Assembly: GCA_965204755.1 (NCBI GenBank)
Contig: OZ242011.1
Coordinates: 1,600,001-1,664,000 of the forward strand
Source: Candidatus Marinacidobacterium sp.
Lineage (GTDB): Bacteria; Acidobacteriota; Vicinamibacteria; Marinacidobacterales; Marinacidobacteraceae
Length of the DNA stretch: 64,000 bases
Reading direction: 5' to 3'
The notes under the pieces were generated by a model. The model was not told the DNA's origin, made no database searches, and saw only the letters and a program-made list of their open reading frames with translations. Of this stretch, positions 37,875 through 61,413 are shown piece by piece (position 1 is the stretch's first letter; every line of letters starts with the position of its first letter). Position numbers and translations under genes: made by a program.

Positions 37875-38172
37875 GCTACCCCCCCAGTTGACCCCTCCGG
37901 GCAGGCCGCTACCCCCCCCCCCCCCCCCCCCCCCCCCCAGTTGAGCCATCGCAGGGGGCTACCCCCCCAGTCGAACCTTCCAAGTGGACTTCGACCCCCC
38001 CAGTCGGGCCTCCGGACGGGACTCGCCCCCCCGGTCGAGCCTCCGGGCGGAACTCGACCCCCCCAGTCGAGCCTTCCGGGGCGGAACTCGACCCCCCCAG
38101 TCGGGCCTTCCGGGCGGAACTCGACCCCCCCAGTCGGGCCTTGCGGACGAGACTCGACCCCCCAGACGAGCC
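37875..38172. repeat. Array of 9 units, ~33-bp period, core (T)CGA-CCCCCCC-AGTCG with semi-variable linkers; one C-run is 27 nt
   Basis: C-runs start at 37879, 37912, 37962, 37995, 38026, 38058, 38092, 38125 and 38158. Confidence 0.92.
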
Positions 38173-38189
38173 TTGGAGGAAAACCCGGT

Positions 38190-59492: not shown

Positions 59493-59855
59493 ATGACTTC
59501 CGAACTCACGACCATCGGCCGCCTCCGACGATTCTTCGTCCGGATGTTCGGATTCCAGGAGGTGCTCGAACTCGTCGGCCCGCGCTGCCCTCGGTGCTAC
59601 TCGATCGATCCGGATCACGCCGCGCACGGGGATGGCGACACCGAATGGTGGAAGTGTCGGCGGTGCCGCCATCGGTTCAGCGGCCCGGTAGGCCCGTGCT
59701 GGATGGGAGAAGAAAACCTCGGCCCGCGCTGCCCCGAATGTTTCGCTGCCGATCCGTTTCACTGGGTGAACGGGACCGACTGGACTTGCGAGAAATGCGG
59801 CCACAACTGGGATGAAGGCCCGACTCTGGACGCGTTTCTCCGACCCGACAGTTGA
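59493..59855 (+). CDS. Small double zinc-ribbon protein
   Basis: GPRCPRC...WKCRRCRHRF and GPRCPEC...WTCEKCGHNW; alternative start at 59544. Confidence 0.65.
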   Translation: MTSELTTIGRLRRFFVRMFGFQEVLELVGPRCPRCYSIDPDHAAHGDGDTEWWKCRRCRHRFSGPVGPCWMGEENLGPRCPECFAADPFHWVNGTDWTCEKCGHNWDEGPTLDAFLRPDS

Positions 59856-59911: not shown

Positions 59912-60130
59912 CACCTATACACGATTCGCGCCACCTATACACAATACGGGGCAGCTATACACAATTCCCGTCAGCTATACACAATTCCCGTCAGCTATAC
60001 ACAATTCCAGTCAGCTATACACAATTCCCCTCGGCTATACACAATTCGGCGGCAGCTATACACAATTCCGCGCCGGCTATACACAATTCGCTCGCACCTA
60101 TACACAATTCCGCGTCGGCCATACCCGGTC
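59912..60130. repeat. Direct-repeat array, block 1: 10 copies (plus 1 degenerate) of CTATACACAATTC at 20-21 bp period
   Basis: Cores at 59915, 59935, 59955, 59975, 59995, 60015, 60035, 60056, 60077 and 60098; degenerate copy at 60119. Confidence 0.96.
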
Positions 60131-60287
60131 GATCCTGTCCGTAAACGATCCGCCACTTCACCCTCAGGGCTCGTTTTCGGCCTTACGAGCCCCCGGAGGC
60201 GACATCCATGGGCGCACTTCGGTCGCCGGCGAGTACTTGCGCAGGGTTGCGCGCCGCGCCGCCGCGCCGCGCCCGACCGAACCCGGC

Positions 60288-60364
60288 CACCTATACACAA
60301 TTCCCGATGCAGCTATACACAATTCGCGCCGGCTATACACAATTCGGGCAGCTATACACAATTC
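60288..60364. repeat. Direct-repeat array, block 2: 4 perfect copies of CTATACACAATTC
   Basis: Cores at 60291, 60313, 60333 and 60352. Confidence 0.96.
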
Positions 60365-60471: not shown

Positions 60472-61140
60472 TCAGAGTATCGCGCCCCGGTATCCACACC
60501 CCATCCGCAACTTGAGGAGCAGTACCGTGCGACCGCCCGTGTCGACTTCCAACCCGTTCGGGTCGTCGAAGTCTTCTTCGAAGATCAAGCCGTTGGGGTC
60601 GGACAAGACCACGGCCGCATGGTCGGGGGTTCCCGCCAAGTTGGCCTGGACGAGTTCCGCCGGGTGGGTTCGATACCACGCCTCCTCGTCTTCAACGAGG
60701 AGGTTGAAGCGATTCAACCACAGGCAATCGAAGCGATACGCCGGTTCTTCGGCGCGGAAGGGAGTGAACACCAAGGCGCCGCAGGCCCCAAGGCTCCTTC
60801 GCTGGTTCCGACCCGGAGTCGTCTCGTTCACCGAGTCCAGTGCCCTTTTGAACCTGGACAACAGGTCGGGGCAGGCCCCGCCCCGTTCCTCGATTTCCGG
60901 GAAGATGCTCCACCTCTCCCGATTCTTTCCGAAGGACTTGATGTGGCGGATCGACTCGTCCCGAAAATCGTGGAGCCAGGAGCACTTCGCAGCGTCCGTC
61001 ACCGGCAGGAGGAGGCGATGCGTGTACTCCTCTCCCGTATACCGGATGATCTCGTCGGGGCGGAATCGAGGAACGAACGAAAGGCGATCGATTCCGTCGC
61101 GCCTGGGGTTGCGCGTGAAGACGGTGTCCAGGTGGATCAT
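60472..61140 (-). CDS. Hypothetical protein (222 aa, no recognised family)
   Basis: ATG with a GCAGG-like RBS, globular amino-acid composition, lower GC than the flanks. Confidence 0.65.
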   Translation of the reverse strand: MIHLDTVFTRNPRRDGIDRLSFVPRFRPDEIIRYTGEEYTHRLLLPVTDAAKCSWLHDFRDESIRHIKSFGKNRERWSIFPEIEERGGACPDLLSRFKRALDSVNETTPGRNQRRSLGACGALVFTPFRAEEPAYRFDCLWLNRFNLLVEDEEAWYRTHPAELVQANLAGTPDHAAVVLSDPNGLIFEEDFDDPNGLEVDTGGRTVLLLKLRMGCGYRGAIL

Positions 61141-61413
61141 GCGGGGACCTGCTCTGCGGTTTCGCTCGAGAGGGATCGAGGACGGGATGTCCTTCCCGGC
61201 CCCGGCGGCGTTGGTGTCGGTGGAGAGTGGTAGGCCCGACTGGACTTGAACCAGCGCCCTCCGGTTTATCAGACCGGCGATCTAACCTGCTGATCTACGG
61301 GCCTGACCGGAGACGGTAGCCCCGAATCCCGCCGGCGGGGGCGCGGTTCATCGGACGCGCCGGTTCGTTAATCGAAATGGATCGAGAGGGGATCGGCCCC
61401 CGGCTCGCTTCGC

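Follow-up and report, generated by a model that had tools for sequence, protein, structure and literature searches.

Nine helically phased repeat arrays in a Candidatus Marinacidobacterium chromosome, and a winged-helix protein as their candidate reader

The repeat array and its reality

The DNA analyzed here is a 64,000-nucleotide window (C1:1600001-1664000) from the single-contig genome of a Candidatus Marinacidobacterium species (G000; 3.976 Mb, 71.7% G+C). Between a frame for a two-zinc-ribbon protein and a 222-aa orphan frame, the window carries an array of the 13-mer CTATACACAATTC that may serve, together with eight similar arrays, as a docking platform for a DNA-binding protein encoded elsewhere in the chromosome. 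We find 14 matches to the 13-mer, all on the + strand at 59915-60364, of which 12 are exact and two carry one mismatch (CTATACACGATTC at 59915 and CTATACACAATAC at 59935). Dinucleotide-preserving shuffles predict 0.05 matches, and 14 were reached in none of 100 shuffles. Start-to-start spacings are 20 bp (six times), 21 bp (three times), 193 bp, and then 22, 20 and 19 bp, and Tandem Repeats Finder (TRF) picks up both of the resulting blocks. The trinucleotide ahead of each core is CAC, CAG or CGG, and the left-block linkers (59915..60110) are 7-8 nt long, variable and G+C-rich. A preliminary description made from the letters alone had reported the same copies in blocks of 10 and 4, the same periods with a gap of ~180 bp, and the same trinucleotides and variable linkers; our exact recount and measured spacings agree with it throughout. 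The array is made up as follows:

59915..60110, + strand: left block of ten head-to-tail CTATACACAATTC units, the first two with one mismatch each, spaced 20-21 bp
60111..60290, + strand: centre, 180 bp, 71% G+C, with no alignment to the centres of the other eight arrays
60130-60135 and 60146-60152, + strand (forward): two copies of CGATCC(G), the second extending to CGATCCG
60167..60192, + strand: G+C-rich hairpin (GGGCTCGT, 10-nt loop, ACGAGCCC)
60291..60364, + strand: right block of four exact units, oriented like the left block and spaced 22, 20 and 19 bp

Short hairpins resembling the one at 60167..60192 are present in most array centres.

The same locus occurs in contigs assembled from sequencing runs of three other studies (X4, X6 and X10), with a flank identity of ~98-99%. 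These contigs span the window centre with 1-4 differences and end within the repeat blocks, as short-read assemblies do. Because contigs of three other studies share the flanks and bridge the centre, the window array is genuine, and the earlier worry that it might be an assembly artefact falls away.

Nine arrays of one family, and the same design with other cores

Allowing up to one mismatch, the genome holds 104 copies of CTATACACAATTC (100 exact; none for the reversed 13-mer used as a control), and all 104 fall in nine arrays, which we call family A. A second core, AAAGACACAGGCTC, defines family B, with five loci in the same genome and a block-centre-block layout like that of family A:

Family A arrays: 0.358, 0.756, 1.208, 1.660 (window), 2.045, 2.895, 2.971, 3.119 and 3.494 Mb
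Family B arrays: C1:245538-245957, 587965-588404, 1046737-1047162, 2291686-2292209 and 3356797-3357237

In each family A array, a centre of 140-222 bp (177-193 bp in seven of the nine) separates two blocks of 4-10 units that all point the same way; the centres are 69-86% G+C and mutually unalignable. Across the arrays, conservation covers a 16-nt site, [C/G]A[G/C]CTATACACAATTC. Most linkers measure 7-9 or 17-18 nt (range 2-30), and the 86 of them comprise 68 distinct sequences. When neighbouring units of the same length are compared, 94 of 297 linker sites and 3 of 390 core sites differ (Fisher 1e-34), a contrast that supports selection on the core, rather than slippage alone, as what keeps it constant, in line with what had been proposed from the window array. 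The helical phasing noted there also holds genome-wide: 78 of the 86 within-block spacings, mostly 20-22 or 29-32 bp, lie within 1.5 bp of a multiple of 10.5 bp (31% by chance). Placement on one face of the DNA at two or three turns suits a row of interacting bound proteins, and slippage gives no such placement.

We found no significant regularity in where the arrays lie. The coefficient of variation of the gaps between them round the chromosome is 0.56 for family A (P 0.07) and 0.66 for families A and B together (P 0.085). With the origin assumed near dnaA at 1.82 Mb, six of nine A arrays, and 9 of 14 when B is included, are co-directional with the presumed fork, which is not significant. Cumulative GC skew follows an irregular course and is lowest near 2.5 Mb, and gene-strand bias reaches its minimum at about 1.4-1.8 Mb, in the vicinity of dnaA. 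A 9-mer motif search of the array centres returned solely G+C-rich low-complexity words.

Family B centres end in a ~40-bp A+T-rich stretch immediately before the right block, and some cores in the B right blocks follow one another at a 13-bp period with no linker. Related genomes carry further cores. A genome of the same genus (G001) has AAAGACACAGGG arrays at five loci and no family A; in one of another genus (G003), six contigs carry yTATTyCCCCAGCTC, on five of them in two blocks and on the sixth as a lone recognisable unit; and G008 has TTATCACCCCAGCTC arrays at two loci. In 40 relatives, same genus included, CTATACACAATTC has no exact copy and 0-2 one-mismatch matches per genome, close to the control level. 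Scans of metagenomes and genomes for the core pattern returned solely one unrelated origin-like region (L027-L030). At two loci orthologous between G001 and our genome, the G001 spacer has no array and is shorter (288 bp vs 730 bp here, and ~45-65 bp vs ~600 bp here), and at a family B locus the synteny with G001 stops at the array. On the evidence of the two array-free spacers, the arrays are gains in this lineage.

The chromosome also carries mobile or repeated sequences, some of them close to the arrays. Remnants of an IS3-family terminal inverted repeat are found at C1:358269-358290, 755718-755739, 1207894-1207915, 2895835-2895856, 2970735-2970756 and 245997-246018. Five of the seven remnants in the genome lie 14-40 nt from an array edge and a sixth 291 nt away, always with the outer end toward the array. 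The intact element is present in 43 copies in a relative (G039), and one remnant in G003 directly abuts a repeat unit; the arrays seem to attract this insertion sequence. A 75-bp element starting TGTCGAG, with two GACACC(G/A)AC-TTTT-CGCA repeats, has five copies (C1:358306-358371, 585869-585944, 1575798-1575879, 2970640-2970716 and 3119661-3119737), three of which adjoin A arrays without a fixed orientation; the element may represent a terminus of another transposon. A dispersed ~220-bp repeat with ~70-90 BLAST matches, some of them tandem (e.g. C1:1207026-1207263, 3120869-3121097 and 316627-317507), looks like a small non-autonomous mobile element.

A candidate winged-helix reader

In G008, one open reading frame ends inside the last repeat of an array. 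A tblastn search with this frame found three paralogues in our genome, among six matches at E up to 1:

Paralogue 1, C1:2046014-2047135, 373 aa: start codon 95 nt from the outermost core of the family A array at 2045498-2045918, transcribed away from it
Paralogue 2, C1:1047266-1048330: 104 bp after a family B array
Paralogue 3, C1:2589968-2591251: 81 bp from a 120-bp satellite built on GGGGCTCGATCCG

The first of these, which adjoins an array of the same family as the window array, lies ~382 kb beyond the window.

We built a profile from five members and searched it over 401 genomes of the class. Full-length matches are confined to this bacterial family, where 21 of 27 genomes have 1-6 matches each; among the other 373 class genomes four matched, and the three of these matches that were inspected cover the C-terminal part only. 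A tandem array (period 18-53) lies within the 1.5-kb flanks at 20 of 21 gene loci from 17 genomes, 15 times upstream of the start (99-536 bp) and five times downstream, with none at the G042 locus. The base rate of an array beside a random gene-sized place in our genome is 0.12. The core is common to orthologues and differs between paralogues. In G005, which has no match to the candidate protein, a two-block detector found no array in the first 1.141 Mb, whereas our genome has 13 such arrays in total and four in an equal span.

Aligned members share a conserved N-terminal motif, PPGLDRIR..WLW.R.IG, and after it ~100 residues rich in G, A and R. Next comes a linker that is proline-rich, 70-250 residues long and basic in one patch, and the C-terminal ~75 residues are again conserved. 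AlphaFold2 predicts, for the 373-aa protein, long helices at residues 18-149 (predicted local distance difference test, pLDDT, 50-74), disorder at 150-285 and a winged helix at 290-373 (pLDDT above 90). The best Foldseek matches that we inspected are all winged-helix DNA binders: the Fic-family C-terminal domain (E 0.013), ArsR/SmtB, MarR and Z-alpha. Pfam places Fic-like_C on three of the five members (E 3.7e-4, 0.023 and 0.027) and HTH_20 on two (E 8.6e-4 and 0.0091). NCBIfam returned nothing meaningful, PHROGs matched none of the five proteins, and PADLOC gave a single weak match to the winged helix of Csa3 (E 0.0055). For the N-terminal part, a look-up in the ESM Atlas gave no usable match, a profile comparison with solved structures matched designed coiled-coil bundles (E 3e-4), and one paralogue's N-terminal piece hit an apolipoprotein family below that family's cut-off. 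A word-indexed search returned 18 relatives, none of them named, and in an exhaustive profile search 49 representatives reached E up to 1e-30, the majority matching over their full length; a much larger set shares the C-terminal domain only, with 725 at 1e-10. Among eight orthologues from other samples, identity is 95-97% in the N-terminal part, 95-99% in the winged helix and 67-85%, with indels, in the linker. A full-text literature search (titles and abstract openings) returned nothing on this protein family or on chromosome-scattered phased arrays.

The paralogues may also be linked through the array centres. The satellite next to the third paralogue has the core CGATCC(G), and CGATCCG occurs 16 times in the 14 array centres of families A and B (2.1 expected; P about 1e-9), with at least one copy in 8 of the 14. 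Its orientation is forward in family A (11 to 1) and backward in family B (0 to 6). These counts hint that two paralogues might meet on one array. The large satellites of this genome are built on GGGG(C)TCGATCCG, one repeating a 15-bp unit 116 times and two having 120-bp units; they lie at C1:339974-341756, 2587848-2589887 and 2780725-2782397, and one of them adjoins the third paralogue.

The preliminary description had looked for partner proteins next to the window array, and had pointed to a zinc-ribbon protein, a 222-aa orphan and an AAA_14/DUF4143 ATPase. The nearest features are:

59493-59855, + strand: two-zinc-ribbon frame, ~120 aa, overlapping the start of an opposite-strand SpoU methylase gene
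60472-61140, - strand: 222-aa orphan frame
61228-61304, - strand: tRNA-Ile (GAT) gene

The orientation of the two frames bears out the description of the array as lying between convergent genes, on condition that both are real genes. By tblastn against this genome, neither the zinc-ribbon protein nor the 222-aa orphan has a paralogue. AAA_14/DUF4143 genes number 27, of which two lie within ~1.3 kb of an A array (1661588-1662046, in the window, and 2896654-2897151). The neighbours of the nine A arrays are otherwise unrelated (Pfam, 48 frames), and include an amidohydrolase, SNF2 helicases, a methyltransferase, shikimate and histidine genes, Uma2 and Fic. We therefore rejected all three proteins as recurrent partners of the arrays. 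What stands of the earlier proposal is its kind, an array-plus-protein system, with the candidate protein encoded well outside the window instead of beside the array. Within the window, the Pfam scan covered the frames between ~53 and 62.6 kb and found no Rep or cas family there; of the rep, par, dnaA and cas genes said to be missing from the window, dnaA does lie outside it (C1:1822832-1824703). Many arrays of the chromosome adjoin restriction-modification or defence genes (SNF2 twice, ResIII, Uma2, Fic, a DUF1156 methylase, HsdR, and Dcm with EcoRII).

The G+C content at 59-61 kb of the window is 63-64%, compared with 72% for the genome. A 16-nt stretch in the 3' part of the tRNA-Ile gene (61233-61248) is matched at 15 of 16 positions at 59773-59788, inside the zinc-ribbon frame, and this pair brackets the array together with the 222-aa orphan; it could be the trace of an integration site or a chance match. 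Elsewhere in the window, a run of 27 C (37912-37938) is followed by 6.6 copies of a 33-bp repeat (37961-38174). The palindrome GTTGACAAC is present in six copies at a 15-bp period (46% G+C; C1:2558518-2558620), ~30 bp upstream of a frame with an AAA/STAND-type ATPase-like start (Walker-A-like GPRRIGKT, read from the DNA). Similar ATPase genes (AAA_16, nSTAND1) are found after a repeat array in G003 (L080) and after a repeated GACACC motif at C1:1575798-1575879.

A docking platform weighed against known systems and alternatives

Taking these results together, we lean towards reading the window array as one of nine docking platforms for a sequence-specific DNA-binding protein encoded elsewhere in the chromosome, with the 373-aa winged-helix protein as the candidate. 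From the anatomy of the arrays, the selection on the core, the phasing and the linkage of gene and array across genomes we infer how the candidate might bind, cooperate and act. Each winged helix would read one 16-nt site, and sites two or three helical turns apart would place the proteins on one face of the DNA, so that each block could form a cooperative head-to-tail protein-DNA filament. The two blocks would bracket ~180 bp that often hold a paralogue's motif, CGATCCG, and the helical N-terminal parts would join or tether the complexes. At the home array of the 373-aa protein, the complex would probably also control the protein's own promoter. The most likely role is chromosome organisation or tethering of the centromere kind; autoregulation with titration, or a decoy function in defence, are possible roles.

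Several points weigh against this proposal. The 21 gene loci form about nine orthologous groups that share their flanks by descent, and are therefore not 21 independent events; the base rate was measured with a TRF score limit of 60, compared with 50 at the gene loci. One of the nine A arrays adjoins the gene, and the window array is assigned to the protein by the shared core alone. The G005 comparison is a negative control of one genome, and of 39% of it. On the side of the protein, the N-terminal part is modelled with moderate confidence (pLDDT 50-74), Foldseek has no match at E 0.001, and the C-terminal matches to named families are all under the curated cut-offs. Finally, neither the frames around the A and B arrays nor the 1.5-kb flanks at 11 of the 21 gene loci encode a motor of ParA, ParM or TubZ type, and a segregation role would therefore be one without a known engine.

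The nearest known counterpart is the type III partition complex TubR-tubC of plasmids and prophages. According to PMC6009700, the winged-helix protein TubR binds direct repeats that are split into blocks, lie upstream of its own gene and span 130 to more than 350 bp; the complexes are bent or ring-shaped, cover and repress the promoter, and are handed to the motor. Our system shares the split direct repeats upstream of the gene, at the home array (95 nt) and at 15 of the 21 loci, the window array being remote, and the candidate protein has a winged helix that is predicted by structural modelling and fold matches. The system differs in that no tubulin-family or TubZ gene lies in the flanking frames of those 11 gene loci or of the arrays, and in that the candidate protein is three to four times larger, with its helical N-terminal part and disordered linker. 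The cores here are 13-16 nt at spacings of 20-21 or 30-33 bp, most arrays are far from the gene and scattered round the chromosome, and several paralogue-repeat pairs coexist.

Other systems offer partial parallels. Plasmid iterons are same-orientation repeats of 17-22 bp with a core of ~16 nt and a few variable bases, placed two turns apart and often in two clusters, and the arrays resemble them in their tandem same-orientation units, 16 conserved nucleotides and phasing. Nine iteron-like copies here sit in one chromosome, however, and family A has no A+T-rich unwinding region, whereas family B has its 40-bp A+T-rich stretch. No Rep initiator (Rep_3, TrfA or RepA) is encoded in the 48 frames around A arrays or in the 32 around B arrays and one further locus, the whole genome not having been searched. 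Given the lack of a motor or initiator in the flanks examined, the extra protein parts and the remote, coexisting arrays, we therefore place the system in the centromere and iteron kind, as a member of neither class. This agrees with the first of the earlier suggestions, a cooperative protein-binding platform of that kind, and it is the best reading. In Bacillus subtilis, RacA at ram sites and Noc at NBS sites are dedicated proteins that tie scattered chromosomal sites to a cell structure via a second domain. Those sites are single palindromes, not phased direct-repeat arrays, and the proteins are unrelated. Two further classes of repeat can be set aside. The arrays are not CRISPR arrays, in which repeats of 23-50 nt alternate with unique spacers about as long; they have a 13-nt core, linkers of mostly 7-9 or 17-18 nt and no cas family in the neighbouring frames. 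They are also not repetitive extragenic palindromic (REP) or bacterial interspersed mosaic (BIME) elements, whose units are hairpin-forming imperfect palindromes, since the core is not self-complementary and all units point the same way.

Core selection and phasing require a reader and do not name one. The arrays might be docking sites for another sequence-specific protein, with the winged-helix gene a frequent passenger of repeat-rich spacers. This alternative is unlikely but deserves to be taken seriously: eight of the nine A arrays have no winged-helix gene nearby, and arrays draw other insertions, as the five IS3-end remnants at their edges show. Against it stand the arrays next to 20 of 21 gene loci, compared with a base rate of 0.12, the three paralogues beside three different repeat families in one genome, and the occurrence of protein and arrays in the same bacterial family.

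Neutral decay would affect cores and linkers equally, and whole-turn phasing has no neutral cause. Both points, with the core and linker counts given above, make it improbable that the arrays are a selfish or neutral minisatellite, or a small mobile element, that has no protein partner and spreads by transposition and slippage. The gain of arrays in this lineage, the linkers that neighbouring units sometimes share, which shows that slippage occurs, and the wealth of other repeats in the genome would all fit such an origin. However, neither of the two insertion sites shows terminal inverted repeats or target duplications that we could recognise, and the centres are unalignable, which argues against recent spread as whole copies.

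Repeats flanking a centre are also the layout of iteron origins and pac sites. The arrays share this layout, many of them border restriction-modification or defence genes, and the A+T-rich end of the family B centres resembles an IHF site. A non-coding defence element could be imagined on this basis, in which copies of plasmid or phage origins or packaging sites act as decoys for an invader's initiator or terminase. We hold this to be very improbable: no phage or plasmid with these repeats was found (cores A and B had no match in viral contigs, 50,697 phage records gave none, and 72,556 plasmid records yielded one 34-bp chance-like match only), and the linked protein is encoded in the chromosome and shows conservation across the bacterial family.

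The preliminary description had also seen a possible cluster of DnaA boxes that titrates DnaA; a reservoir of this kind would titrate or recycle the replication initiator. Clusters of initiator-box-like 9-mers away from the origin are found in Escherichia coli (datA and DARS) and at six sites in B. subtilis. The resemblance to DnaA boxes is real: CTATACACA differs at position 1 only from the DnaA-box consensus TTATNCACA, and in L027-L030, an origin-like region of an unrelated genome with 47% G+C, packed with TTATCCACA-type boxes, two exact 13-mers lie 22 bp apart amid the classical boxes. Near-matches such as CTATACACA, two mismatches from TTATCCACA, cluster nowhere but in the nine arrays of a genome that has one exact TTATCCACA and no cluster of classical boxes, including in the 1.17 kb upstream of dnaA (C1:1821658-1822832). 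A DnaA reservoir is nonetheless highly improbable. Conservation extends over 16 nt, 7 nt past the 9-mer and including AATTC; the core was not found in the 40 relatives, whereas DnaA normally keeps its specificity; the cores of identically designed arrays are unrelated; and the centres are 69-86% G+C. The overlong conserved stretch, the species-specific core and the strict phasing set the arrays apart from datA, DARS and the B. subtilis clusters. Our analysis thus sets aside a reading that is tempting but weak.

Least credible of all is a transcribed repeat RNA, acting as a sponge for an RNA-binding protein or, as had also been suggested, as the precursor of ~20-nt pieces: the regular unit size and single orientation are all that speaks for it, the array has no Rfam match, the window array and three family B arrays have no sigma-70-like promoter or intrinsic terminator beyond the level of shuffles, the window centre folds no better than shuffles (z-scores -0.39 and +0.64), and helical-turn phasing is a property of DNA, not RNA.

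Returning to the proposal that a winged-helix protein docks at these arrays, a bolder version, which we offer as a rather doubtful speculation, is that they form a chromosomal address code private to this acidobacterial family. Each paralogue would read its own scattered phased arrays, and its N-terminal helices would gather or anchor the loci, to each other, to the membrane or in a condensate, in a holocentric-like arrangement of many sites that organises or segregates the chromosome by no known motor, and whose proteins and repeats change in pairs. If so, the composite arrays, with blocks of one paralogue's sites around the CGATCCG sites of another, would be junctions between sets.

If the link between protein and arrays holds, naming a candidate reader makes the arrays directly testable. 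The reader would belong to a protein family confined to one family of Acidobacteriota, with several paralogues per genome, each with its own phased arrays, some beside its gene and others up to megabases away. They would be natural orthogonal protein-DNA pairs, and through them the principle of plasmid centromeres and iterons would apply at many sites of a bacterial chromosome.

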